Source: Rhodospirillales bacterium
GTDB taxonomy: Bacteria > Pseudomonadota > Alphaproteobacteria > MPNO01 > UBA2964
Direction: 5' to 3'
DNA length: 64,000 bases
Assembly (NCBI GenBank): GCA_038116945.1
Contig: JAYOEY010000003.1
Coordinates: 128,662 to 192,661 of the forward strand
The notes under the pieces: model-generated
Told to the model about the DNA's origin: nothing
The model's input: only the letters and a program-made list of their open reading frames with translations
Databases searched by the model: none
Program-made: the position numbers and the translations under genes
Part shown: positions 45,365 through 60,121 of the stretch, one piece after another
Layout of the letters: every line of letters begins with the position of its first letter
Position numbering within the stretch: position 1 is the stretch's first letter

Positions 45365-45426
45365 GGGGAGGGTCCTTTGTGTCTCGGTCAGGAAAACGAG
45401 CCGATTTAAGGGCATATCGGCAAGGC

Positions 45427-45831
45427 TTATAGTTTCACCTGTTCCAATTTACCTTTCCCGGAAAATTTATAAGGCACCAAAAATGCTCCGCTACTAATCA
45501 AGGATGCGGTTTCCATGAGGCGGGGCCACCACCTAATCAGCGCAGCTGCTTTGTCCCATTCTTTCTGGTGCGCCCATCCTTTTGCCAGCATAAACGTCAG
45601 CAAACCTGTGGAACGCAGCGCTTCACGTTCGATTGAATTACGTGTCAATCGATCTTGCGTAATAACTGCCCAATCTCCGTCCTCAGATAATTTTTTAATC
45701 CAATCAATGTCAGGAGTATTCTTGGGAAATATTTCGTCTAAGTGTTTAACCGATATATTCTCAGGCTCGCACAAAGCAGAAATTGCCTTTGCAAGATAAA
45801 TTGAAAGGTTTCGGTCGATAAAATAATTCAA
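45427..45831 (-). CDS. PIN-like toxin (VapC45/DUF5615-like)
   Basis: YFIDRNLS, PDIDWI, WAVITQD..I..E acidic PIN pattern. Low GC. Confidence 0.75.
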   Translation of the reverse strand: MNYFIDRNLSIYLAKAISALCEPENISVKHLDEIFPKNTPDIDWIKKLSEDGDWAVITQDRLTRNSIEREALRSTGLLTFMLAKGWAHQKEWDKAAALIRWWPRLMETASLISSGAFLVPYKFSGKGKLEQVKL

Positions 45832-46514
45832 GCTGCGTGGCGCTCTTCAAATTCAACAGCAGCTCGCACTTCCGATACAGATACATCGTACCACCTTGCC
45901 ACTCTCTGAAGAGAATCTTCCGCTTCAGCAGCTGCAGCCAGCACTTCTGTTGGAACACAGCTTTTTGCGACGATGGGTCTTCCGAAACTTAACTTAGGGT
46001 CGAGCATAACAACTTTCTTCGGGAACATCGGAAACCATCGAGATATTTGATCATTCGAAAACTCAAGACCCCGATATAACGACGGACTAACAATGTCGTT
46101 AAAAACCCAAGTTTTCAAGTTCATATCAAAAAGTTTTATATCTCCCATATCATCAATTCTCTGGAAAATCCGATTTCCATCGGTTCGGAACTGTCGGCGC
46201 GTGAATGGATGGCCATCTTCAAACATTTCACATGCCAAGGCAGCTGCTTCCCGAATCGCCTGCCAACTCACATGGTGTTTCCTAAAAGCATGGATAAACC
46301 GGATCTCCATTAAATCTAAGAAGCTTAAAGCGACGTGTTCATCAACTTTATCCAAATCGCTTTTCCAAACCGGCGGCATAGAGCGATCTCCGTCTCCGAC
46401 GCGGAACTTGTACCCGCCGATCCACCGACGGATGCTTTGCGCGCTAGTCCCAGTCAATGAGGCAGCTTCACCGACCGTATAGAGACCGACACCGATAAGT
46501 TGATCATTGCTCAT
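45828..46514 (-). CDS. HTH + DUF433 antitoxin (VapB45-like)
   Basis: N-terminal HTH (LYTVGEAASL..IRRW), SFLDLME and C-terminal DP..SFGRP..V..AVEFE. ATGA overlap with the PIN gene. Confidence 0.8.
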   Translation of the reverse strand: MSNDQLIGVGLYTVGEAASLTGTSAQSIRRWIGGYKFRVGDGDRSMPPVWKSDLDKVDEHVALSFLDLMEIRFIHAFRKHHVSWQAIREAAALACEMFEDGHPFTRRQFRTDGNRIFQRIDDMGDIKLFDMNLKTWVFNDIVSPSLYRGLEFSNDQISRWFPMFPKKVVMLDPKLSFGRPIVAKSCVPTEVLAAAAEAEDSLQRVARWYDVSVSEVRAAVEFEERHAA

Positions 46515-46660
46515 GGCTATGAAAACCGGTCACCCCAAGATTTCGAAAAGCAGGAAAGCACAAATATCGTCACAGCGGTAGCCAAGTTCAAGCAGGCAAT
46601 TTCGGCCAGCATCCTTCGGTGGCAGGAAGATAACCAACAAGCGCCGGCCTGCGTAACCAA

Positions 46661-47914
46661 TCACCCCTCAAAAAACACGTAACTCCGCACCACCACGTTC
46701 CGCCGGTTCCGGGCCGTCGCGGGCGCTGTCGGGTCCTTGCACGCCGTGTGAAACGACCAGCGCGAGACCGAGCCGTCGGCGATGCTGTCGTAGCATTTCA
46801 GCATCGAGACCTCGGTCTCCTTCTGCTGCGGGAACCAGTACCATTCATGGTCGGGGTGCCAGGTGAAGCGCGTGGTCTCGCCCACGCGGTCGTCATAGAT
46901 GCGGTAATTGTTGATATAGGGCTGCTTCGCGAAGGACGGCCAGGCGCACAGCACGAACGGGTACTGCCCGACCGGCTCATCCGGCTTGGCGAGGTTGATC
47001 GACATGAAGCGGCGCGACATCTTCTCGCGCGCCTCGGCTTCGGTGTAGTTCTGCTGCCGCCCGAAATTGCGCAGATTCTGCGTCAGCAGCTCCCAGCAGC
47101 GCAGCCGGCCGGAATTGTCATTGAGATCGTTATGCACCCGGTTGGAATAGCTCGACTGCACGCCGGGATTCTTCGCATCCTGGTTCTCGGTGCGGTCGCC
47201 GGTATAGTCGGCGTCGAAACAGTCATGGTTATAGACCAGCGCATCGGTCGCGCCGGGGAAGAAATCGAGCAGCAGCTTTTCGATCTCGGGATAGAACACG
47301 CGCTCCACCTCGGCTGCGTCGTAGATATTCTCGAGCTTCGACTCCAGATGCGCCACCGACAGGCCGAGCCTGTCCATGCATTCGGCGCTGTCCGGGCGGA
47401 GGCCGGGATAGTACTCGCCGATCCGCCGCGCATCGCGCAGCACGACCGGGAAGTACAGATTGTATTTCTGGTTGTTTTCCTGCTGACGCCGGATCAGCCC
47501 CATATCGACCGGCGGGGCGGGGTTGCGCCACAGCGAATTCGACGGCACCACCGAATAGGTTGGCCTTTCGTAGACCGTATAGCCCAGCGGCGCGACGATG
47601 CCGCCCTCCGGCGCCGCGATCCCCTGCTCGTTAATATAGGCGAGGCAGTCTTCGTATGTCCGGAAGCCGGGGCCCCATTTGGTTTCGATCGGGCCGGGCG
47701 GCGCGTTCTCGATCCGCGCGACCAGGTTCGGCCCCTCATCGTCGGCGGCCAGCGCCAGCGCGTCCTTCAGCGCCTCGCCCGTGCCGGCATCGCCATCGCG
47801 CTCGAACGACAGATAGGACAGCCCGCCATTGGTCGCGATCGGCGGCGGCTGCCCCTCGGTCAGCTGCAGCGGCGGCACGAAGGATGCGGATTGCCGGGTA
47901 TCGATGTGATCCAT
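46661..47914 (-). CDS. CmcJ/NvfI-like Fe(II)/2OG-type oxidoreductase with N-terminal extension
   Basis: VHND (HxD), HEWYWFPQQ...LKCYDS, FHTA..DPTAP..R...VR. Confidence 0.7.
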   Translation of the reverse strand: MDHIDTRQSASFVPPLQLTEGQPPPIATNGGLSYLSFERDGDAGTGEALKDALALAADDEGPNLVARIENAPPGPIETKWGPGFRTYEDCLAYINEQGIAAPEGGIVAPLGYTVYERPTYSVVPSNSLWRNPAPPVDMGLIRRQQENNQKYNLYFPVVLRDARRIGEYYPGLRPDSAECMDRLGLSVAHLESKLENIYDAAEVERVFYPEIEKLLLDFFPGATDALVYNHDCFDADYTGDRTENQDAKNPGVQSSYSNRVHNDLNDNSGRLRCWELLTQNLRNFGRQQNYTEAEAREKMSRRFMSINLAKPDEPVGQYPFVLCAWPSFAKQPYINNYRIYDDRVGETTRFTWHPDHEWYWFPQQKETEVSMLKCYDSIADGSVSRWSFHTACKDPTAPATARNRRNVVVRSYVFFEG

Positions 47915-47996
47915 GAGAGCCTCCCGTCCGGAAAATTCGTGCACGAAGTTTGGCACGGCGGATGGGTGCGGGGGAAGCGGTTACAGAACCAGGCAC

Positions 47997-48040
47997 GATC
48001 ACCGCGCCCGAATTCACTTCACGCCTGTGGAAGGCGATCT
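47997..48040 (+). repeat. 44-bp direct repeat, left copy
   Basis: GATCACCGCGCCCGAATTCACTTCACGCCTGTGGAAGGCGATCT, 40/44 identical to 48488-48531. Confidence 0.9.
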
Positions 48041-48056
48041 CCCGAATCCTGTTTTC

Positions 48057-48344
48057 CTATCGGACCAGGTCGTCGTAGAGGTCACGCCAGTCCGGGTTCA
48101 TCTCACGGATCAGATTGACCTTCCATTGGCGCGGCCAATGCTTGACGTTCTTTTCACGCTGGATGGCTGCCAGGGCCGTTTCATGAATTTCGTAGTAGAC
48201 GAGACGGTGGAGGTTGTAGCGTTTCGAGAATCCCTCTACCGACCCGGCTTTATGTTCATGGGCACGGCGCGCGAGATCGTTCGTGACACCGACATAGAGC
48301 GTTCCGTCGGGTCGATTGGCAAGCATATAGACGAAGTACGCCAT
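48057..48344 (-). CDS. Stand-alone GIY-YIG nuclease family protein (95 aa)
   Basis: YFVYMLA...LYVGVT.DL.RR..EH...Y....LVYYE....AIQREK..K.W.R.WK..LI...NP.W.DL. Confidence 0.92.
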   Translation of the reverse strand: MAYFVYMLANRPDGTLYVGVTNDLARRAHEHKAGSVEGFSKRYNLHRLVYYEIHETALAAIQREKNVKHWPRQWKVNLIREMNPDWRDLYDDLVR

Positions 48345-48363
48345 TATGCGATTCAACCGGCGA

Positions 48364-48466
48364 GAGATCACCGGGACAAGCCGGGTGATGACGCCTCAAA
48401 TTGTTCTCTGTCTTGCCCGAGCCCAATCTTTCGTCATGCCCGGGCGTGTCCCGGGCATCTTGCGGA
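48364..48466. repeat. Pair of CGTC-type REP palindromes upstream of the GIY-YIG gene
   Basis: GAGATCACCGGGACAAGCCGGGTGATGACG (48364-48393) and CGTCATGCCCGGGCGTGTCCCGGGCATCT (48432-48460). Confidence 0.85.
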
Positions 48467-48487
48467 GGCAGAGCGCGCCGTCAGAAG

Positions 48488-48531
48488 GATCACCGGGCCC
48501 GAATTCACTTTACGCCTGTGGACGGCGACCT
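48488..48531 (+). repeat. 44-bp direct repeat, right copy
   Basis: GATCACCGGGCCCGAATTCACTTTACGCCTGTGGACGGCGACCT. Confidence 0.9.
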
Positions 48532-48627
48532 TTATGAAGCCGGCCCCCCCTCCCCGCCTCCCCGGCAGTTGAGCGCCTTCCCGTCCCGTGATAGCAAAAC
48601 GGAAAGTCGAATGAACGGAGGCTACCG

Positions 48628-49926
48628 ATGACCGCCCTCGATACCGACTCGCTGCGCGCGCTGATCAGGCCCGACCGGGTGCATCGCGACTATTACCTGA
48701 ACCCGGACATATTCAAGCTCGAGATGGAGCGCATCTTCGGGCGTTCCTGGCTGTGTCTCGGCCATGACAGCCAGGTGCCCGAACCGTTCGATTTCATGAC
48801 CACCTCGCTGGCGGGACAGCCGGTCATCGTAACCCGCGACCGCGACGGCGAGGTGCATGTGATGTTCAACCGCTGCACCCATCGCGGCGCGCAGGTCTGT
48901 ACCGCGCCCAAGGGAAACACGCGCCGGTTCGAGTGCCCCTATCACGGCTGGGTGTTCCATGCCGACGGCAGGCTGGCCGGCACGCCCTATCCCGGCCGCT
49001 ATGCCGAGGGCTTTATCGAGGAAGGCAATTTCGACCTGGCCCGCCCGCGGGTCGAGATCTATCGCGGCTTCATCTTCGCCAATCTGAGCCAGGACGCCCC
49101 GGACCTGGCGGAGTTCATGGGGCCGATGCTGGGCTGCATCGACCATATGGTCGACCGCGCGCCGGACGGCGAGGTCGAGGCCCCGGCCGGCATGTTCCGC
49201 TATCGCTGGGACGGCAACTGGAAGATCCAGATCGAAAATCTCAACGATCTCTACCACCCGATGTTCACCCACGCCTCGACCACCGCGGAGGACGGCACGC
49301 AGTTCCGCCGCCAGGGCGCGGAAGAGGACGATGCCGGCAAGGTGAAGCTGCTGGAGGAAGGCGCATCGCTCAACGCCCAGTGGGAGGACCAGCTGATCGA
49401 GGGCTTTCCGTGGGGTCATTCCTCGATGCAGAGCTTCCCGGTCGACAAGGGCAACAGCGGACCGGTCTATGAACGCTACCGGGCGGCGATGGTGGAACGC
49501 CATGGCGACCGCGCCGAAGAGGCGATGCGGGTGAAGTACCACAACTCCATCTTCTTCCCGCAATGGTCGCTGCAATACCTGACCCAGCATATCCGGATCA
49601 TGAATCCGATCTCGGTCGACTGCACCGAGAACATCATCATCCCGCTCAAGCTCAAGGGCGCGCCGGAAGAAATGTGGCGGGCGCAGGTGCGGTCCAACAA
49701 CAATTCGCACGCGCCCTCGGGCATGGTGATGGCCGACGACATGGACGCCTGGACGCGCTGCCAGAACGGGCTGAAGGCGCAGGGCAATGACTGGGTCATC
49801 TTCGCCCGCTCGCTGGGCGAGGAGAAGCTCGACAACGCGGGCGGCTTCACCACCACCGGCACGTCGGAGGCCCATTCGCGCCAGCAGCACAGGGCGTGGC
49901 TGCACTATATGTGCGACGCGGCGTAA
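48628..49926 (+). CDS. Aromatic ring-hydroxylating dioxygenase alpha subunit
   Basis: NRCTHRG...CPYHGW Rieske motif and NWK..IEN..DLYH..FTH. Confidence 0.9.
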   Translation: MTALDTDSLRALIRPDRVHRDYYLNPDIFKLEMERIFGRSWLCLGHDSQVPEPFDFMTTSLAGQPVIVTRDRDGEVHVMFNRCTHRGAQVCTAPKGNTRRFECPYHGWVFHADGRLAGTPYPGRYAEGFIEEGNFDLARPRVEIYRGFIFANLSQDAPDLAEFMGPMLGCIDHMVDRAPDGEVEAPAGMFRYRWDGNWKIQIENLNDLYHPMFTHASTTAEDGTQFRRQGAEEDDAGKVKLLEEGASLNAQWEDQLIEGFPWGHSSMQSFPVDKGNSGPVYERYRAAMVERHGDRAEEAMRVKYHNSIFFPQWSLQYLTQHIRIMNPISVDCTENIIIPLKLKGAPEEMWRAQVRSNNNSHAPSGMVMADDMDAWTRCQNGLKAQGNDWVIFARSLGEEKLDNAGGFTTTGTSEAHSRQQHRAWLHYMCDAA

Positions 49927-50405
49927 TGGCCGACACCCTGACCGAGATCGAACAGTTCCTCTATCGCGAGGCGCGTCTGCTCGACGAGCGCCGCTTCGAG
50001 GACTGGATGGGGCTGTTCGCCGACGACGGCTATTACTGGGTGCCGGGCGTGGCGGATGCTGAAGACCCGTACGAATGCGTCTCGATCTTCTTCGACGACA
50101 AGCCGCTGATGAAGACCCGTATTCAGCGGCTGCGCCATCCGCGGATTCATTCGCAGGAGCCGCCCAGCCGCACGACCCATTTCGTCTCCAACGTGGAAAT
50201 CGACGAGGATTTCGGCGAAGCGAACGAAATGCTCGCATACTCCGCCCAGATGATGCTGGAATTCCGCCTCGATCAGCAGACCAGTTTCGGCGGCAGATGC
50301 CGGCACTTGCTACGCCGGACGGACGGCGGATTCGAGATCGCCTGGAAACGCGTCGACCTCGTCAATTGCGACGGCATCTTCAAGACGCTGACGATCCCGT
50401 TCTGA
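49926..50405 (+). CDS. Aromatic ring-hydroxylating dioxygenase beta subunit
   Basis: FLYREARLLDERRFEDW, SQEPPSRTTH, KRVDLVNCD. TAATG overlap with the alpha subunit. Confidence 0.9.
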   Translation: MADTLTEIEQFLYREARLLDERRFEDWMGLFADDGYYWVPGVADAEDPYECVSIFFDDKPLMKTRIQRLRHPRIHSQEPPSRTTHFVSNVEIDEDFGEANEMLAYSAQMMLEFRLDQQTSFGGRCRHLLRRTDGGFEIAWKRVDLVNCDGIFKTLTIPF

Positions 50406-50421
50406 GCTACTAACTTTCAGT

Positions 50422-50451
50422 CGTCATGGTCGGCCTTCGCCGACCATGACG
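50422..50451. repeat. Perfect CGTC-tagged hairpin (REP-like, possible terminator)
   Basis: CGTCATGGTCGGC-CTTC-GCCGACCATGACG. Confidence 0.75.
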
Positions 50452-50550
50452 GTTAGTCAATGGAGCGATCAGCGGTAATTACTTCCGTCGTCTTTCCATT
50501 CCTGTCGCTTGGACAACTGCGCGGTTTTCTCCGTCCCGCTGACGGGGTTC

Positions 50551-50583
50551 CACCCCCGCGCGCGGGGGAGGGTCAGGGAGGGG
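50551..50583 (+). repeat. C/G-rich palindromic repeat unit
   Basis: CCCCCGCGCGCGGGGGAGGGTCAGGGAGGGG, same family as 63595-63699. Confidence 0.7.
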
Positions 50584-50584
50584 C

Positions 50585-52054
50585 TCACCCCGCTTCCAGA
50601 ATTGCCGCCGCGTCCGTCTCCAGCACGGTGCCCCTGAAAAAATCCGGGTTCATGCCGCCGTGGAGCCGGACCGTGTTGCCGTACATGAAATCGCGGTACT
50701 GCGCCTCGGTCATCAGCCCGTCTTCGAGCTGCTCGTAGGCTTCGACCGCGACATGCCGCGCGTCGGTCACGTCCCAGTGGCCGATATCGGAGGAGAACAG
50801 CGCCTTGACCGGGAGTGAGAACGGCATGCCCTCGCCGCGCAGCGCCGCCCCGGCATAGGGCTCGTCGGCCTCGCACCCGAAAAAGAACGGCTTCTGGAAC
50901 CGGTCGACCAGGTCTTCGATCCGCGTCATGCCGCAGGCGTGGAACTCGTCGACCAGCTTCGGGTCCAGCCGGTCCTGCTCGCCCATCCCGACATCGCGCG
51001 GCGGCGGGTCGAACCCGTCCGCCTCGGTAATGTGATCGGCGATCACGCCGTCCGAATATTGCCGGAACAGGGATGCCATTTCCTGCGTATCCACGTTGCG
51101 GGAATCGAAATAATGCACGCCCTCGGCGTTGCGTTTCAGCCAGCGCTCGCGCAGGCCGGAAAACAGCACCCCGCCCCACGACACGCCGCCTTCCATGAAG
51201 CCGAAATTGAGGCCGGGAAAGCGCGCCGTCACCCCGCCGAAGAACAGCGCCTTGGCGAACATCTCGCCGCCGGCGGCGAAATGGCCCAGATGGTTGAACA
51301 TGAAATTATTGACGGCGCGGCGGAAGCCGAGCCCGAACGTGGTGTTGTGCGCCGTCACCGCGACGCCGAGCTCGACGCATCTGGCCCAGACCGGGTCGTA
51401 ATCGTAAGGGGAATCGAGCGCCAGCATGTCGCAATACTGCGCCGCGCGGGCGACGCGCGGGTCGGCATCCTTCATCCCGTCCGGCGTGCGCAGCACGAAA
51501 TTGGCGAGCGCGATCGATTTCAGCCCCAGCGTGCCGATGGCGTGGTCGAGTTCCGCCAGCGCTTCCTCCGGCGTATGGGTCGGGATGATGGCGACCGGCG
51601 TCATGCGGTCGGCATGGTCGCGGTAGAGATCGGCCACCATCGTGTTGTAGGCGCGGCACAAAGCCGGACGGAACGTATCGTGCGGCAGGTTGACGTAGAT
51701 CAGCCCGGCGGAGGGATACAGGATCGCGAAATCGATGCCGAGCTCGTCCATCCGCGCGCGCCTGAGATTGGGCAGCGCCGCCGTCGCCCGGTCGAGCGTA
51801 TTGGCCCCGGCGGTCGCCCAGAATTGCGGCCTTCCCATGCGCCACGCCATGCGGTCGGCCGGCGTGGCGTGATCCCACTGGAACCGGCGCGCCTGCTCGT
51901 CCCACGCCTGGTACTCCGCCCGCATCTGCGCCCCGAACAGCCCTTCCAGATAATCGAGCACAATCTTGCGGTACTCGAGAATATGCCCGTCCGCGTCGAT
52001 GGTGGGGTGGCCCTGTCTCTGGCGGATTTCGGCGGCGGTGGGGCCGTCGGTCAT
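50585..52054 (-). CDS. Amidohydrolase_2 family protein (paralog of 1028-2512)
   Basis: IDADGH, YDYDPVW..CVELGVAVTAH, GGVTARFP.LNFGF.EGG, FSSDIGHWDV. Confidence 0.85.
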   Translation of the reverse strand: MTDGPTAAEIRQRQGHPTIDADGHILEYRKIVLDYLEGLFGAQMRAEYQAWDEQARRFQWDHATPADRMAWRMGRPQFWATAGANTLDRATAALPNLRRARMDELGIDFAILYPSAGLIYVNLPHDTFRPALCRAYNTMVADLYRDHADRMTPVAIIPTHTPEEALAELDHAIGTLGLKSIALANFVLRTPDGMKDADPRVARAAQYCDMLALDSPYDYDPVWARCVELGVAVTAHNTTFGLGFRRAVNNFMFNHLGHFAAGGEMFAKALFFGGVTARFPGLNFGFMEGGVSWGGVLFSGLRERWLKRNAEGVHYFDSRNVDTQEMASLFRQYSDGVIADHITEADGFDPPPRDVGMGEQDRLDPKLVDEFHACGMTRIEDLVDRFQKPFFFGCEADEPYAGAALRGEGMPFSLPVKALFSSDIGHWDVTDARHVAVEAYEQLEDGLMTEAQYRDFMYGNTVRLHGGMNPDFFRGTVLETDAAAILEAG

Positions 52055-52130
52055 GGGATGCTCCGGGGCTTTGTCGGTGGGTCCCTATCGTACAAAGACG
52101 AAGGAAGGACCGCCACCCGGGGGCGGCTTG

Positions 52131-52246
52131 CCTCGTCTTTCGAGACGTTCGCTCCGCTCACCCCTCAGGATGAGGCAAACCTGAAAAACTGACCTCATGT
52201 TGAGGAGGCCCGCAGATTTATCTGAGGGCCGTCTCGAAATACGAGG
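52131..52246. repeat. Inverted doublet of a second REP-like family (CCTCATCCTGAGG...CGTCTCGAA type)
   Basis: 52131-52175 is an imperfect reverse complement of 52193-52246 (CCTCAT..TGAGG...CGTCTCGAAA.ACGAGG). Confidence 0.7.
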
Positions 52247-52255
52247 TCAATAGAA

Positions 52256-52285
52256 GAAGGGGCCAGCCAATTGGCGGGCCCCTTC
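52256..52285 (-). terminator. Stem-loop downstream of katG
   Basis: GAAGGGGCC / GGCCCCTTC stem. Confidence 0.55.
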
Positions 52286-52308
52286 GGTTTCAGCGATGTG
52301 TCGGCAGA

Positions 52309-54480
<2,172 letters not shown>

Positions 54481-54499
54481 CTAACGATCTTCAAACCCG

Positions 54500-54592
54500 C
54501 CTTATTGCGAATTGGAATTAATATAATAATTGACATACGCCTTTTCAATGGCATGAACACTATTCTAGAATTATTTTATTTTATTGTATTTT
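54500..54592. promoter_or_regulatory. AT-rich katG promoter region with two degenerate Irr ICE-like motifs
   Basis: ATTGGAATTAATATAAT (54511-54527) and TCTAGAATTATTTTATT (54564-54580) each match 13/17 positions of TTTRGAAYNRTTCYAAA. Confidence 0.4.
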
Positions 54593-54631
54593 GCGCGACC
54601 GACGGTCGCTGCAAGTCGCTGGAATCAAACG

Positions 54632-54658
54632 AAAAGGGCCGGCATTTCTGCCGGCCCT
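54632..54658 (-). terminator. Rho-independent terminator of the UbiD operon
   Basis: AGGGCCGGCA / TGCCGGCCCT stem followed by a U-tract on the - strand. Confidence 0.7.
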
Positions 54659-54683
54659 GCGTTCTCCAACTGCTTGGTATTTG

Positions 54684-56108
54684 CTACCCCGGCAGCACGT
54701 CGCCGAATTTCTTCATGATGCGCGCGTCCAGATCGGGCGAATTGCGCGCCACGATGGGGAACGTGTCCTTGCGGCGATAGGGGCGGCAGGCATCCACCAC
54801 CACGCGCGAATTGCGCGGGTCCTCGTGGCTGTAGGCCATCGGGTCGAGATGGGTGCTCCAGCAGCCGTTGAGGATATCGACACCGTCCTTGGGATCGCAC
54901 CTGGTGCACATCGACCAGATCACGTCGTTCAGGTTGGCCGGATCGATATCGTCGTCGACCACGATCACCCAGCGGTTGGCGTAGGCCCCGGCATGGCACT
55001 GGCTGGCCACCAGCCCGGCCTGCTTCGAATGGCCGCCATACATGGTCTTGACCGAAACCGTCAGCCACATGCGGCTGCCGCCGGCCTCGTGCGCCCAGAC
55101 GCCCTTGACCTCGGGGATGCCGGCGGCCTCGAGCTGGTTCCACACCGCGCCGCAGCGATAGGTGCCGCGATAGAACGTGTCGTCATTGGGCGGCACCGCC
55201 GGGATCGCACCGAGCAGGATCGGATCGTCGCGATGCATGAAGGTCTCGATGCGGATCGCCGGCTGCTTGGTCTCGCCGCCCGCGTAATAGCCGGTCCACT
55301 CGCCGAGCGGGCCTTCCGTGATCACGTCGTCCGGATGGATGAAGCCCTCGAACGCGATCTCCGCGTTGGCCGGCACCGGCAGGCCGGTCTTCGGCATGTT
55401 GATGATCTCGACGCCCTCGCCCAGCAGTCCGCCGGCGCAATCGTACTCGTTCTTGCCGTAGGGCATCTCGAGCCCCGCCACCATGAACAAAGCCGGATGC
55501 ATGCCGACCACCACGGCGACCGGGCAGGGCTCGCCCTTCGCATGGTACTTGTTGCGGATGATGTCGCCATGCTTGCCCTTGGACGTCATCAGCGACGCGG
55601 TGCCCGGCCCGTGCGACTGCACGCGGTAGGCGCCGTAATTGATCCAGCCGGTATCCGGGTCGCGCATCACCACCATGCTGGCCGTGCCGATGAAATAGCC
55701 GCCGTCGAGCTCGTGCCATTTCGGGGTCGGGATCTTCTCGATATTGACGTCCTGGCCCTCGTAGACGTTGTCGAGCAGCGGCCCGCCATTGACCTCGACC
55801 GGCGGGATCGAAGGCTGGTTCTTCATGTAGTTGCGCCAGTAATCGACGAGGCCGACCTCGGAGGTATCCACCGGCAGGTCGAGCGCGATATTGATGCGCG
55901 GCACCGAGGTCAGGATGTTTGCCAGCACGCGGTAGCCCTTGTCGTATCCGGGGATGTCGTCGAACATGACCGCCGGGTTAGTCATCTTGCGCATGTGGAT
56001 ATCGACGATCGCGCCGATCTCTTCCTCCCGGTCGGCGCCCGACACGTGCTGCAGCTGTCCCGCCGCCTCGAGCCCGTCAATCCAGTCCCTCAGATCCTTG
56101 TTCGCCAC
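54684..56108 (-). CDS. UbiD family prFMN-dependent (de)carboxylase
   Basis: DLRDWI..LE, NYGAYR, EGPLGEWTGYY, VVDDDIDP..WSMCTR. Confidence 0.9.
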   Translation of the reverse strand: MANKDLRDWIDGLEAAGQLQHVSGADREEEIGAIVDIHMRKMTNPAVMFDDIPGYDKGYRVLANILTSVPRINIALDLPVDTSEVGLVDYWRNYMKNQPSIPPVEVNGGPLLDNVYEGQDVNIEKIPTPKWHELDGGYFIGTASMVVMRDPDTGWINYGAYRVQSHGPGTASLMTSKGKHGDIIRNKYHAKGEPCPVAVVVGMHPALFMVAGLEMPYGKNEYDCAGGLLGEGVEIINMPKTGLPVPANAEIAFEGFIHPDDVITEGPLGEWTGYYAGGETKQPAIRIETFMHRDDPILLGAIPAVPPNDDTFYRGTYRCGAVWNQLEAAGIPEVKGVWAHEAGGSRMWLTVSVKTMYGGHSKQAGLVASQCHAGAYANRWVIVVDDDIDPANLNDVIWSMCTRCDPKDGVDILNGCWSTHLDPMAYSHEDPRNSRVVVDACRPYRRKDTFPIVARNSPDLDARIMKKFGDVLPG

Positions 56109-56159
56109 GATGTGTTCTCCTGTGTCCTGATGGGCCGTTTCCGACCCGCTTCATCATAC

Positions 56160-56243
56160 TGTCATCCCGGACCTGATCCGGGATCCCTATATCCGCTGTC
56201 TGCGCGTTGGCCCGATGGACCCCGGCTCAAGGCCGGGGTGACA
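56160..56243. repeat. TGTC/CGTC-type REP doublet
   Basis: TGTCATCCCGGACCTGATCCGGGATCC...GGACCCCGGCTCAAGGCCGGGGTGACA. Confidence 0.8.
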
Positions 56244-56252
56244 ACAGTACCG

Positions 56253-58571
56253 TTACCCGCGCGCGTCCAGTATCTTCTTCAGCCGCTGCGGCGTGACGGG
56301 TGTCTGCGTTACCGCGCCGGGAACGCCGATGGCGGCGTCGATGGCGGATGCGATGGCGGCGGAGGCGCCGGTGATGCCGGCCTCGCCCGCGCCCTTGATG
56401 CCGAGCGGCGTACGGATCGAGGGGAAATCCTCGGTCAGCAGGATTTCGGGCTTCGGCAGCTCCTGCAATGTCGGCATCAGGTAATCGGCGAAGGTCACCG
56501 CCAGCGGCTGGCCGTCGGCGTCATAGGCGAACTCCTCGAACAGCGTGCCGCCGATGCCCTGCGCCAGCCCGCCCACCAGCTGCCCGTCGACCATTGCCGG
56601 GTTGATGGCGCGGCCGATATCGTAGCCGATGATGTAGCGTTCGATATCCACCCCGCCGGTATCGGGGTCCACCTTCACGACCGCGATGTGCAGCCCGTAC
56701 GGGTAGGTCTGGTGATCGATGTGGAAGAACGCCTCGCCCATCAGGAACGGGTCGCGCTTGCCGCGCGCCTTGGACGCCGGCGCCAGCGCTTCCGCGACCT
56801 CGCCCAGCGTCACGGACGGGCCGGACGGGTTGCCTTCGGGATGAACGACGCCATCGGTGATGGTGAGCCGGTCCGCCGGCGTCTGTAACAGATCGGCCGC
56901 CATATCGAGCGCCTTTGCGCGGACCTGGAGCGCGGTTTCATAAACCGCCGTGCCGGTTAGCACGGTGGCGCGGGACGCATGCGCCCCAACGCCGTATTCG
57001 ATGCGGTCGGTGCGGCCGTGGACCACCTTGATGCGGCGGTAATCGGTGCCGAGCGTCTCGGCCGCGATCTGCGCCATGGCGGTCTCGAACCCCTGGCCGA
57101 TCGACGCGCCGCCGGTCACCACCTCGACATGGCCGGTGACGTCGACATAGATCTTGGACCCGTCGGTCGGGCCGAGCCCGCTTTTCTCGAAAAACATCGA
57201 GACCCCGGCGCCCACCAGCTCGCCATTGGCGCGGCGCTCTGCCAGTTCTTTCTCAATCGCGTCATAGCCGTAGGCTTCGAGCGTCTTGTCGAGCAGCCCT
57301 TCGTAATCGCCCGGATCGTGCTCGACAGAATCGCCCAGCACGTCGAGATCGCGGCCCCACGGCATTTCCTCGAGCGCGATCAGGTTGCGGCGGCGCACCG
57401 CTAGCCGGCTCATGCCCATCTCTTCGGCGATGGCGTCCATCAGGCGCTCGCGTACGAAGGTGCTTTCGAAACGGCCGGGTGAACGGTAGGTCGCCGCCGG
57501 CGTCTTGTTGGTCAGGCAGAAATGGCAGACCGAGCGGTAGTTGGGAATACGGTACGGGCCGGGCAACGTGCCGGTCGTCATGTTGGCGACGCGCGTGCCG
57601 TGGGTACGGATATAGCCGCCCTGATCGAGCCACAGCTCGTCGTCGATCGCCACCACCTCGCCGTCCTCGGCGACGGCGGCGCGGATTTTGTGGCGCTGCT
57701 GGCGCGACTGGTTGGCGGCCGTCAGATGTTCCTGCCGGTCCTCGATCCATTTGACCGGCCGGTCGAGCCGCATCGCGGCGACGCAGACCAGCACGTCCTC
57801 GGGGTAAAGCTCGCCCCTGATCCCGAACCCGCCGCCGGTGTGACCCTCGTACAGATGCACGCCCGACGCGGGCCGGTTCAGCATGCGGCAGAGGGTCTCG
57901 CGGTTGCGGTGCGGGACCTTGGCGGCGCCATGCATTTCCAGCACGTCGCGCGCCGCGTCGTAGCGCCCGACCGAGCCGCGGCATTCCAGCGGTACGCCCG
58001 AATGGCGGCCGACCTTTACATCCACCTCGACGATTTTGTAGGCCTCGGCAAAGCTCTTCTCGATATCGCCATAGCCCTGCTCGACCACGGCGGCCTCGGT
58101 TGTCTGGCCGTCCTTGAAGTCCTGCGGCGGGTCGTCGGCATTGACCAGCACCGGCAGCGGCTCCAGGTCCAGTTCGACCAGCTCGGCAGCGTCCTCGGCG
58201 ATATAGGCGTCCTCGGCGAACACCGCGGCAACCGGATCGCCGACATAGCGCACCCGTTCGCGCGCCAGCGCGTACTGGCGGAACAGGGCGAGCTGCGGGT
58301 TCGACCCTTCGCGGAAATCGATCGGCGGAATGTCGGCGATATCGTCCGACGTCCATACCGCGACCACGCCCGGCAGCGCCTTCGCCGCCGCAATGTCGAT
58401 CCCCTTGATAAGCCCGTGCGCGATGGGCGAGCGCACCACCCGCATGTGAAGCTGGTCGGGAAAATTGACGTCGCCGACGAACCGGGCCCTGCCCGAAATC
58501 AGCGGCGGGTCTTCGAGCCGGTTAACGCTGTCGCCGAGATGGCCCAGCATGTCGTTTCTCTGCGTAGCCAT
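56253..58571 (-). CDS. Molybdenum hydroxylase large subunit (CoxL/XdhA family, not CO dehydrogenase)
   Basis: RLED..LISG, GGGFGIRGE, loop ATYRSPGR, GQGFET, KGAGE. Start moved to MATQRN. Confidence 0.88.
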   Translation of the reverse strand: MATQRNDMLGHLGDSVNRLEDPPLISGRARFVGDVNFPDQLHMRVVRSPIAHGLIKGIDIAAAKALPGVVAVWTSDDIADIPPIDFREGSNPQLALFRQYALARERVRYVGDPVAAVFAEDAYIAEDAAELVELDLEPLPVLVNADDPPQDFKDGQTTEAAVVEQGYGDIEKSFAEAYKIVEVDVKVGRHSGVPLECRGSVGRYDAARDVLEMHGAAKVPHRNRETLCRMLNRPASGVHLYEGHTGGGFGIRGELYPEDVLVCVAAMRLDRPVKWIEDRQEHLTAANQSRQQRHKIRAAVAEDGEVVAIDDELWLDQGGYIRTHGTRVANMTTGTLPGPYRIPNYRSVCHFCLTNKTPAATYRSPGRFESTFVRERLMDAIAEEMGMSRLAVRRRNLIALEEMPWGRDLDVLGDSVEHDPGDYEGLLDKTLEAYGYDAIEKELAERRANGELVGAGVSMFFEKSGLGPTDGSKIYVDVTGHVEVVTGGASIGQGFETAMAQIAAETLGTDYRRIKVVHGRTDRIEYGVGAHASRATVLTGTAVYETALQVRAKALDMAADLLQTPADRLTITDGVVHPEGNPSGPSVTLGEVAEALAPASKARGKRDPFLMGEAFFHIDHQTYPYGLHIAVVKVDPDTGGVDIERYIIGYDIGRAINPAMVDGQLVGGLAQGIGGTLFEEFAYDADGQPLAVTFADYLMPTLQELPKPEILLTEDFPSIRTPLGIKGAGEAGITGASAAIASAIDAAIGVPGAVTQTPVTPQRLKKILDARG

Positions 58572-59050
58572 CAGGCGCTCTTCATCTTGTCGCGGGCTTC
58601 GCGCACCGCCTTGATGATGTTCTGGTAACCGGTGCAGCGGCACAGGTTCGACGCCAGCGCGTCGTTGAGCTCTTCGTCGCCGATATCGGGATTGGCCTCC
58701 AGCACGCCGGTCGCCAGCATCAGGAAGCCGGGGGTGCAGTAGCCGCACTGCAGCGCGTGATTGTCGGTGAAGGCCTGCTGCAGGGGATGCAGCCGGTCGC
58801 CATCGGCCAGCCCTTCGACGGTGCGGATCTTCTTTCCCTGTGCCTGGATGCCGAACATCAGGCAGGAACGCACCGGTTCGCCGTCGATCAGCACGGTGCA
58901 GGCGCCGCAGACGCCGTGTTCGCAACCCAGATGGGTGCCGGTCTGATGACAGTCGTCGCGGATCACGTCGGCCAGCGTCTTGCGGGGTTCCACCGTCGCG
59001 CTGTAATCGCGCCCGTTGATGTTGAGACTTATCTCGACCTTGTCAGCCAT
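58571..59050 (-). CDS. Molybdenum hydroxylase [2Fe-2S] small subunit
   Basis: GCEHGVCGAC, QCGYCTPG, CRCTGY. Confidence 0.92.
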   Translation of the reverse strand: MADKVEISLNINGRDYSATVEPRKTLADVIRDDCHQTGTHLGCEHGVCGACTVLIDGEPVRSCLMFGIQAQGKKIRTVEGLADGDRLHPLQQAFTDNHALQCGYCTPGFLMLATGVLEANPDIGDEELNDALASNLCRCTGYQNIIKAVREARDKMKSA

Positions 59051-59056
59051 GTGTCC

Positions 59057-59917
59057 TTACCCCTTCGCCGCATCGTCGAGCGCACGGCGTACCATCGCGC
59101 GTACCAGGTCGCGCCGGTAATCGGCCGTGTTCTGCGCGTCTTCCATCGGATCGACCGCCCTGGACGCGGCATCCGCCGCCGCGTCGAACGCCGCCGGCCC
59201 CGCCGCCTGCCCGTTCAGCGCGGCCTCGGCCTCGGTAATCCGCCTCGGCCGGTCCTCCGCCCCGCCGAGCCCGACGCGGGCATCCGCGATCCTGCCGTCC
59301 ACCTCGCGATAGCACACGACCGCCATGGCGATGGCGAAATCGCCGGCCCGGCGGCTGAATTCCTGAAAACCGACCTTCGCGTCCATCGGCAGCTTGGGGA
59401 TGCGCACCTCGGCCAGCAGCTCGTCTTCGGCCAGCGCGGTCGACATCACCCCTTCGAAATAGTCCGCCGCCGGGATGAGCCGTTCGCCGCCCGACGATTT
59501 CGCGACCATCGTCGCATCCATCGTCGCCGCCACGGCGCACCATTCGGACGCCGGATCGGCATGGGCAACGGAGCCGCAGAACGTGCCGCGCAGGCGGATC
59601 GGCAGATGCGCGATCTTCGCCACGACCTTGGTCAGCAGCGCGCCCGTCGGGCAGGCGCAGACCTGCTCGTGAAACGCCGCGTGCCTGACCCGCGCGCCGA
59701 TGGCAATGACATCGCCCGCGGTCGAGATTGCGTCGAGCCCCTCGACATTGTTGATATCGATCAGATGCGGCGGCTTGGCGAGCCGGAACGCCATGGTCGG
59801 CACCAGACTCTGGCCGCCCGCGAGGATGCGCCCGTCCTCCGGCGCGTACTGCGCCAGCAGCGCGACCGTCTCATCGACGGTCGTCGGCGCGTGATAGGTA
59901 AAAGCGGCGGGTTTCAT
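59057..59917 (-). CDS. Molybdenum hydroxylase FAD medium subunit
   Basis: MKPAAFTYHAP, AGGQSL, RGTFCGSVAHADPASE, RRAGDFA. Confidence 0.92.
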   Translation of the reverse strand: MKPAAFTYHAPTTVDETVALLAQYAPEDGRILAGGQSLVPTMAFRLAKPPHLIDINNVEGLDAISTAGDVIAIGARVRHAAFHEQVCACPTGALLTKVVAKIAHLPIRLRGTFCGSVAHADPASEWCAVAATMDATMVAKSSGGERLIPAADYFEGVMSTALAEDELLAEVRIPKLPMDAKVGFQEFSRRAGDFAIAMAVVCYREVDGRIADARVGLGGAEDRPRRITEAEAALNGQAAGPAAFDAAADAASRAVDPMEDAQNTADYRRDLVRAMVRRALDDAAKG

Positions 59918-60010
59918 GCGTTTCTTTCATGTTTATCGGAGGCGCATAAATGCCCCAGAACGGCGGGCGCGTAAAGGGTGGGGGTCGCCGCTTACCCAAC
60001 AACATTGATT

Positions 60011-60096
60011 TGTCATGCCCGGGCCCGGACCCGGGCATCTTGTGCGGACTGGAGCGAAATCGGCAGGAGATCGCCGGGACAAGCCCGGCGATGACG
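60011..60096. repeat. CGTC-type REP doublet
   Basis: TGTCATGCCCGGGCCCGGACCCGGGCATC...GATCGCCGGGACAAGCCCGGCGATGACG. Confidence 0.85.
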
Positions 60097-60121
60097 AACA
60101 TGATTAGGGCGTCCGCGTTCC

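Follow-up and report, generated by a model that had tools for sequence, protein, structure and literature searches.

Long direct repeats around an ssnA-type nuclease and hairpin cassette in a Rhodospirillales genome and their possible origin by target duplication

How did two nearly identical 44-nt direct repeats come to bracket a small nuclease gene and its hairpins in the genome of a Rhodospirillales bacterium? The repeats lie within a 64,000-nt stretch (GenBank assembly GCA_038116945.1, contig JAYOEY010000003.1, positions 128,662 to 192,661; hereafter the window), and an earlier interpretation made from the letters alone (the sequence-only reading) had explained them as a long target duplication or a recombinational integration scar. 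In this work, we found that the repeats enclose an ssnA-type gene for a single-domain GIY-YIG nuclease and two CGTC-tagged repetitive extragenic palindromes (REPs; REP1 and REP2), and that a homologous cassette in another genus is bracketed by a comparable repeat that is present once at sites without the cassette. The explanation that we favor, with about an even chance of being right, is that the 44-mers represent one pre-existing REP1-like target, which was duplicated when the 447-bp ssnA cassette inserted.

The 44-nt repeat and the cassette it encloses

A repeat search of the window confirmed the pair as one two-copy family. The left and right copies (DR_L and DR_R; Table 1) align without gaps at 40 of 44 positions (91%; mismatches at repeat positions 9, 24, 36, and 42) and start 491 nt apart, with 447 bp between them. 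Their edges are sharp, the sequence beyond the 44 nt being unrelated on both sides. When the window was shuffled 100 times with dinucleotides preserved, no match with three or fewer mismatches appeared. A BLASTN search of the genome itself (G000; 4.2 Mb, 59 contigs) with both 44-mers found these two places only, the next best match being 16–17 nt long. The 25-nt core was found in none of 60 relatives (up to three mismatches allowed) and, in an exact scan, had no match in metagenome contigs. Therefore, the 44-mer is neither a chance match nor a dispersed repeat. A dispersed character, named by the sequence-only reading as one finding that would undo its proposal, is confined to the ends of the repeat: the first 10 nt, GATCACCGGG, are the left arm of REP1 (10/10), and the last seven, MGGCGAY, agree with the REP1 right arm CGGCGAT at 6/7 positions in each copy. 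The octamer GATCACCG opens DR_L, DR_R, and REP1 (48366), as had been claimed, and thus occurs three times locally.

The two copies occupy positions at which hairpins would be expected. DR_L begins 16 nt past the nuclease stop codon, a place at which a 3′ flanking hairpin is found in most relatives (inverted, 4–21 nt past the stop), and DR_R sits exactly where REP1 normally comes after REP2; here, after GATCACCGGG, the loop and right arm of REP1 are replaced by the rest of the 44-mer. The 44-mer folds no better than shuffles (z of −0.8, +0.6, −1.7, and −0.7 across both copies and both strands) and has no CGTC/GACG head. A tRNA scan of 46500–49500 found no tRNA, and the region of the repeats gave no Rfam match and, in a consensus scan, no promoter-like or terminator-like site.

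The statement that the repeats enclose only the nuclease gene and two palindromes also held. From left to right, the cassette consists of 16 nt, the ssnA-type gene, 21 nt, REP1, 38 nt, REP2, and 28 nt. The only open reading frame (ORF) with a recognizable domain between the repeats is that of the 95-aa nuclease, and there is no recombinase gene. The PF01541 domain spans residues 3–77 with no further domain, and NCBIfam gave a sub-threshold match only. When 12 homologs were aligned, Y6, R27, H31, E64, and N83 were invariant and Y17 nearly so; we take these to be catalytic residues, as is general for the GIY-YIG superfamily. The best homolog of this protein among the 60 relatives is 67% identical, and the genome itself has two further ssnA genes with products 58–61% identical to that of the window.

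REP1 reads G ATCACCGGG ACAAG CCGGGTGAT GACG, and lies on the 5′ side of the gene, 21 nt before the ATG, as an oriented CGTC hairpin with its head outward. REP2 reads CGTC ATGCCCGGG CGTGT CCCGGGCAT C. Both hairpins, together with REP3, a further REP of this genome, have a CGTC/TGTC head, stems of 8–9 bp that begin with AT, loops of 5 nt, and a CCA-like tail, and they pair head to head. REP2-spacer-REP1 is a dispersed doublet, of which REP2 forms the first half, with ten genomic copies by pattern count (including that of the window). The doublet spacer is 27–30 nt in nine of the ten copies and, by the same counting, 29 nt at DR_R. On the 3′ side of the gene, by comparison, the expected hairpin place (+17) holds the 44-mer, with its REP1-like arms, no significant fold, and no head.

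Judged by sequence, the gene and its REPs probably belong to the Ssn/SRM system published in 2025, so the link between gene and hairpins was already known. A 94-aa homolog from Neisseria gonorrhoeae, whose gene is followed by two NTS hairpins (CCGTCATTCCCGC...GGGAATC), shares 50% identity with the protein of the window (E 1e-34); from its length, species, and NTS context, this homolog is probably the ortholog of meningococcal SsnA. In the portions of the original report cited here, Ssn proteins are described as single-domain GIY-YIG proteins of ~94 aa, and the characterized members as binding oriented CGTC-headed hairpins (NTS/SRM) as single-stranded DNA (ssDNA) and cutting just upstream. The same portions describe the genes as flanked by these hairpins, on both sides in 42% of cases (PMC11893778). 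We surveyed 109 ssnA loci (30 from relatives and 80 from genome contigs, minus one too near a contig end). A CGTC/TGTC-tagged hairpin lies within 70 nt upstream of ssnA at 67 loci and within 70 nt downstream at 65; 46 loci (42%) have tagged hairpins on both sides, with heads outward in 39 of these 46. The density of tagged hairpins is 8.65 per kb near ssnA ends, compared to 0.48 per kb at distances above 300 nt.

A homologous cassette and its empty sites

The evidence that carries the target-duplication explanation comes from locus L057 in genome G052, which belongs to another genus. Its GIY-YIG homolog (49% aa identity, E 1.1e-24) lies in an insert of 448 bp between perfect 43-nt direct repeats at 1445 and 1936, and the spacing of 491 nt is that of the window. 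The order is a 43-nt repeat, 13–16 nt, ssnA (with a start codon that reads ACG), 17 nt, a REP with its head to the right, 53 nt, a REP with its head to the left, 26 nt, and the second 43-nt repeat. The window follows the same scheme, with REP1 head right and REP2 head left. The L057 43-mer corresponds to the last 42 nt plus the stop codon of a conserved upstream gene; being the 3′ end of a gene that resides at the site, it must be target DNA. At the same-genus loci L075–L083, the matches to the left and right flanks overlap by 41–47 nt in all nine loci fetched, and each of the nine has a single 43-mer and no cassette, as can be seen directly in a multiple alignment of six of them. These patterns prove a long (43-bp) target duplication for the L057 cassette, a member of this gene family. 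No rearrangement was found at this locus.

For the window, the L057 case supports the first of the two proposals in the sequence-only reading strongly, if indirectly. The second proposal, an att-like integration scar, did not gain support, because the L057 repeat holds the 3′ end of the resident gene, which could not have come in on a circle. The L057 repeat opens with CCTGGACCC, which agrees with the tail and arm of the local REP. REP-arm-like motifs stand at the start and the end of both targets, and both cassettes end where a REP would begin in an array. From this parallel, we infer that the same kind of duplication may have occurred at the window locus. Integration seems to have been guided by likeness to a hairpin, because both targets are REP-arm-like at their ends and both cassettes stop where the REP of a donor array would begin. 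In one conceivable route, the two strands of the hairpin-like target would be nicked at opposite edges and the gaps then filled in; in the second, template switching or recombination at REP arms would copy the target again.

Other ssnA loci gave further cases. At L033 (G050), the ssnA unit has a 114-nt REP doublet on each side, and the corresponding site of G058 has a single copy. In the genome itself, a second ssnA gene (paralog 2; L059, C3:266638-267131; 61% aa identity) has the same geometry as the locus in the window and is bracketed by direct 35-nt REP3 copies, which share a private flank, CAACCCGT, absent from all eight other genomic REP3-pattern matches. The idea of a fixed stagger of 43–44 nt was weakened by these 35-nt and 114-nt cases, and the variable lengths fit a target-defined duplication better. 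The third ssnA gene of this genome (paralog 3; L061, C8:93191-93559) is flanked by inverted REP3 copies; G001 and G003 have orthologs of it, that of G001 being a likely pseudogene with an in-frame TGA, and the orthologous site in G002 has neither the gene nor the two hairpins.

Other long repeats were also considered as target duplications. The repeat at L039 lies in a tandem REP array, and the 60-nt direct repeat at L162 reflects two tandem ssnA genes ~697 nt apart; L162 (G066:C1:4040152-4045612, on a Roseibium chromosome) has three ssnA genes within 5.5 kb, the tandem two among them. At L157, a 57-nt direct repeat is a loop-expanded REP, with a geometry similar to that of the window. L172 offered no informative site for the target-duplication test, and for the plasmid of Rhizobium CIAT894, the relatives matched the right flank only.

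REP doublets without a gene were observed beside or orthologous to ssnA units, at L068 (1940–2900; Rhizobium sp. CIAT894 plasmid) and at L031 (1430–1810) compared with L095 (G052). These doublets share the hairpins and the inner gene flanks and have ~23–45 nt in place of the ORF. By this shared structure, the gene-less doublet appears to stand to the ssnA unit as a miniature inverted-repeat transposable element (MITE) stands to its parent. L031 also has a dispersed element of ~380 nt (1794–2170; many copies in G036 and G042) inside the 3′ hairpin loop of its ssnA unit.

Table 1. Coordinates of the features at the repeat-bracketed locus, given as positions in the window.
Feature	Coordinates	Strand	Evidence
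DR_L, left copy of the 44-nt direct repeat	47997-48040	none	Repeat search, shuffles
ssnA-like gene, 95-aa single-domain GIY-YIG nuclease	48057-48344	-	Pfam PF01541, E 2.2e-14
REP1, CGTC-tagged hairpin	48366-48393	-	Head GACG at 48390-48393 (+ strand); fold z -1.7
Head-to-head spacer between REP1 and REP2, 38 nt	48394-48431	none	Sequence reading
REP2, CGTC-tagged hairpin, 9-bp stem, 5-nt loop	48432-48459	+	Fold z -5.7; 0/200 shuffles fold as well
Doublet spacer before DR_R	48460-48487	none	Spacer length compared across doublets
DR_R, right copy of the 44-nt direct repeat	48488-48531	none	Repeat search, comparison with REP1 doublets
11.4-kb segment inverted relative to G001	48615-59978	none	Contig comparison with G001
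Intact REP2-spacer-REP1 doublet at the right inversion junction	60011-60096	+	Pattern match

The locus in relatives and reads, and competing explanations

In the closest relative, G001, the flanking genes are 86–95% identical and the region is collinear over ~100 kb, except for an 11.4-kb inversion (Table 1). The inverted segment contains a Rieske oxygenase operon and its neighbors. The left inversion junction (47917–48614) is intergenic and filled by the repeat-bracketed block, which accounts for essentially all of the junction DNA left unmatched by the sequence upstream of the G001 orthologs, a point in favor of an insertion; the right junction is at 59979–60112. Doublets of the REP2-spacer-REP1 type are present at both junctions here and at neither in G001, which also lacks the ssnA gene, REP1, and REP2 at both places. 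Neither the other junction nor the two G001 intergenic regions gave any trace of the 44-mer (Smith-Waterman scores no higher than the best of 200 shuffles). In the outgroup loci, neither gene adjacency was found within 1.5 kb, so they do not tell the direction of the inversion. Paralog 2 is likewise at a synteny break, namely, the right edge of a 6.75-kb segment that is absent from G001. The positions of these cassettes, at an inversion junction and an island edge, suggest a role in genome rearrangement. G001 differs nearby in another segment, in that ~1.3 kb between two conserved genes (45369–46666) is absent from it; this segment contains a 228-aa HTH_66/DUF433 gene (45828–46514, − strand).

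Logan contigs of runs X1, X3, and X4 cover the locus without differences, as two pieces that meet at REP2 (47849–48460 and 48432–48888; in X3, 47846–48460 and 48432–49100), and no Logan contig spans both 44-mers. The 29-mer of REP2 at which the pieces meet is single-copy in the genome. In the assembled order, both REP2 copies have their head to the left and tail to the right, which is the normal polarity, and the flipped order would break it. We accepted the assembly because of this polarity and the single-copy 29-mer. A second, G001-like strain co-occurs in runs X1, X3, X4, and X5 (47400–48900); its left gene shows 12 differences for every 159 nt, and upstream sequences of the G001 type appear as loose ends in the same runs. 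The summed depth of REP2 is about tenfold above that of its flanks, which implies that the hairpin is common to other community members.

Several observations weigh against a target duplication at the window locus. Neither an empty site nor an excised form was found for it in the 60 relatives, the metagenome contigs, or four runs; the empty site is missing because the G001 inversion breaks exactly in this intergenic region. No read joint that skips the 491 bp was found in the four runs, but their contigs drop rare variants and none bridges both copies, so this result speaks neither for nor against an insertion. The same cassette has no further copies in this genome or the 60 relatives. The four differences in 44 positions imply that the event was not recent or that the copies were never identical, and the orientation of ssnA relative to the hairpin pair is opposite in the window and L057. 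The repeat lengths in the family (35, 43, 44, and 114 nt) give no evident fixed stagger. Two other candidates for the same signature failed: the 202-nt repeat at L050 belongs to a module that is already repeated in relatives, and the 43-nt repeats at L126 are REP doublets inside a 680-nt insertion, with empty sites that lack both. SsnA as published cuts only ssDNA, on one strand, and no transposition chemistry is known for it. Finally, with REP1 arms at both ends of the 44-mer and both copies at expected REP positions, an origin within a REP array would need no insertion.

This last point leads to the main rival, which we regard as unlikely, if well worth weighing. According to it, the 44-mer is a private, loop-expanded derivative of REP1 that was copied locally, by REP propagation or short-patch gene conversion, with one copy serving as the 3′ flanking REP of the ssnA unit and the other as the REP1 of the neighboring REP2-spacer-REP1 doublet. 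The doublet-like spacing before DR_R, the place of DR_L past the stop codon, the presence of tagged hairpins on both sides at 46 of 109 loci, and the loop-expanded REP at L157 all agree with such an origin. Repeats of at least 16 nt are common to both flanks at 27 of the 30 ssnA loci of relatives (the top match being direct in 12 and inverted in 15), and these are mostly plain REPs; direct repeats of at least 25 nt between the flanks were found at 30 of 74 ssnA loci, again nearly all REPs. However, the 44-mer itself has neither the head nor the fold of a REP, no further copy of this variant is present in the genome or the 60 relatives, and REP arms of 7–10 nt offer little length for the gene conversion of a heterologous core of 25 nt. 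Local copying would also leave unexplained the match in layout and spacing to L057, with its proven target duplication. A by-product of the 11.4-kb inversion, by which repair of the break copied a nearby 44-nt patch as a templated insertion primed on the GATCACCGGG arm, is quite improbable in our judgment. It would account for a block exactly at one junction with a doublet at the other, the three local octamers could have acted as microhomology, and the second ssnA gene of this genome is at a synteny break as well. Yet the 44-mer is untraced at the other junction and in both G001 intergenic regions, the outgroup loci, which lack both adjacencies, do not tell which lineage inverted, and L057 shows the same pattern without any rearrangement.

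Integration of a 491-bp circle, with one 44-mer recombining with an identical chromosomal 44-mer in a Campbell-type or site-specific manner (attP x attB), would fit the structure, which amounts formally to 1.09 copies, in tandem, of a 491-bp unit. If such a circle were opened in the REP1-REP2 spacer, the hairpin heads would even face outward, as in the published NTS-ssnA-NTS form. Nevertheless, we consider it very improbable, because the L057 repeat is resident coding DNA and the bracket has no recombinase gene and the vicinity no tRNA; moreover, the 44-mer occurs nowhere else in the genome, the 60 relatives, or the metagenome contigs. We give scarcely any credence to the idea that the 44-mers are duplicated operator or promoter modules for the two divergent flanking genes. 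Each copy does lie ~80–100 nt upstream of one of these genes, but the copies are direct rather than mirrored, are not conserved upstream of the G001 orthologs or anywhere in the 60 relatives, and coincide with no promoter-like or terminator-like site or Rfam match. Taken together, the target duplication remains our preferred explanation; for the window itself the argument is one of analogy, so the locus would be a good but not decisive example of it. Its footprint hints that nuclease-plus-hairpin cassettes really move.

Comparison with known mobile and repetitive elements

The closest known counterpart is the Ssn/SRM system. The window cassette shares with it a single-domain GIY-YIG protein of ~95 aa and oriented CGTC-headed hairpins beside the gene, and our count of loci with hairpins on both sides (46/109, 42%) equals the 42% given in the part of the report cited above (PMC11893778). 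The cassette differs in having a long direct repeat on both sides (the homologous L057 cassette has a proven 43-bp target duplication) and in lacking a proper hairpin at the 3′ flank of the gene. The work on this system demonstrated ssDNA cutting and an effect on transformation, and in the passages cited here, an origin similar to that of an insertion sequence (IS) is only hypothesized (Chenal et al., Nat Commun 2025, PMC11893778). The terms 'duplication' and 'direct repeat' do not occur in the PMC11893778 text. Neither long target duplications nor verified empty sites for Ssn cassettes are described there.

The hairpins also resemble the CGTC-tagged REPs of alpha-proteobacteria, in that REP1, REP2, and REP3 have the same head, stem, loop, tail, and head-to-head pairing. 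In the sections of that study that bear on the point, these REPs seem to have no transposase dedicated to them, and neither a link to GIY-YIG proteins nor a target duplication is reported (Di Nocera et al., BMC Genomics 2013, PMC3733652). Thus, the absence of a dedicated transposase in one of these accounts (PMC3733652) and the IS-like hypothesis in the other (PMC11893778), as far as the cited parts of both go, leave the questions of how CGTC-tagged REPs spread and whether the nuclease-hairpin unit moves. The first structural rule for the movement of such cassettes would come from long target duplications that are hairpin-shaped and backed by verified empty sites. If the cassettes are mobile, this would name the missing mobilizing enzyme of the CGTC-tagged REPs and provide comparative evidence of Ssn cassette mobility. 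Among open-access papers and preprints, we found no literature that links GIY-YIG proteins to REP mobility.

Further parallels exist with the REP/REPIN elements that have RAYT (Y1 HUH) proteins and with IS200/IS605. These share a single-copy nuclease gene between inverted hairpin repeats, as well as dispersed hairpin doublets that resemble gene-less derivatives, but their enzymes have a fold other than GIY-YIG. The only Y1_Tnp (PF01797) match in the genome is at C3:57560-57811, ~119 kb from the locus on the contig. To our knowledge, single-strand transposition of the IS200/IS605 type makes no target duplication. Classical IS elements and MITEs are similar in another respect, in that a direct repeat of target DNA surrounds the inserted unit and is single-copy at empty sites, as in L057. 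Target duplications of classical IS elements are typically 2–14 bp and of fixed length, whereas those considered here are 43–44 bp (35–114 bp in the family), coincide with a hairpin-like unit, and come without a transposase. Integration of spacers by Cas1-Cas2 duplicates the leader-proximal CRISPR repeat, a palindromic unit of ~30–40 bp whose strands are attacked at opposite ends; the enzymes are unrelated, and the resemblance is a mechanistic analogy only. Penelope-like retroelements also connect a GIY-YIG nuclease with insertion, and their target duplications were verified by empty sites; they differ in being eukaryotic, in having a reverse transcriptase, and in duplications of 8–10 bp in the portion of the study cited (PMC3846280).

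A broader reading can be proposed tentatively, as possible rather than probable: ssnA-plus-hairpin cassettes may still be mobile, integrate at REP-like hairpin sequences, and duplicate the whole target unit of 35–114 bp. The pair in the window would then be one such footprint, and the gene-less REP doublets would be internally deleted derivatives. Should this equally tentative picture hold, the insertion signature of the ssnA cassettes would differ both from that of any described bacterial IS and from the duplication-free single-strand transposition of IS200/IS605.

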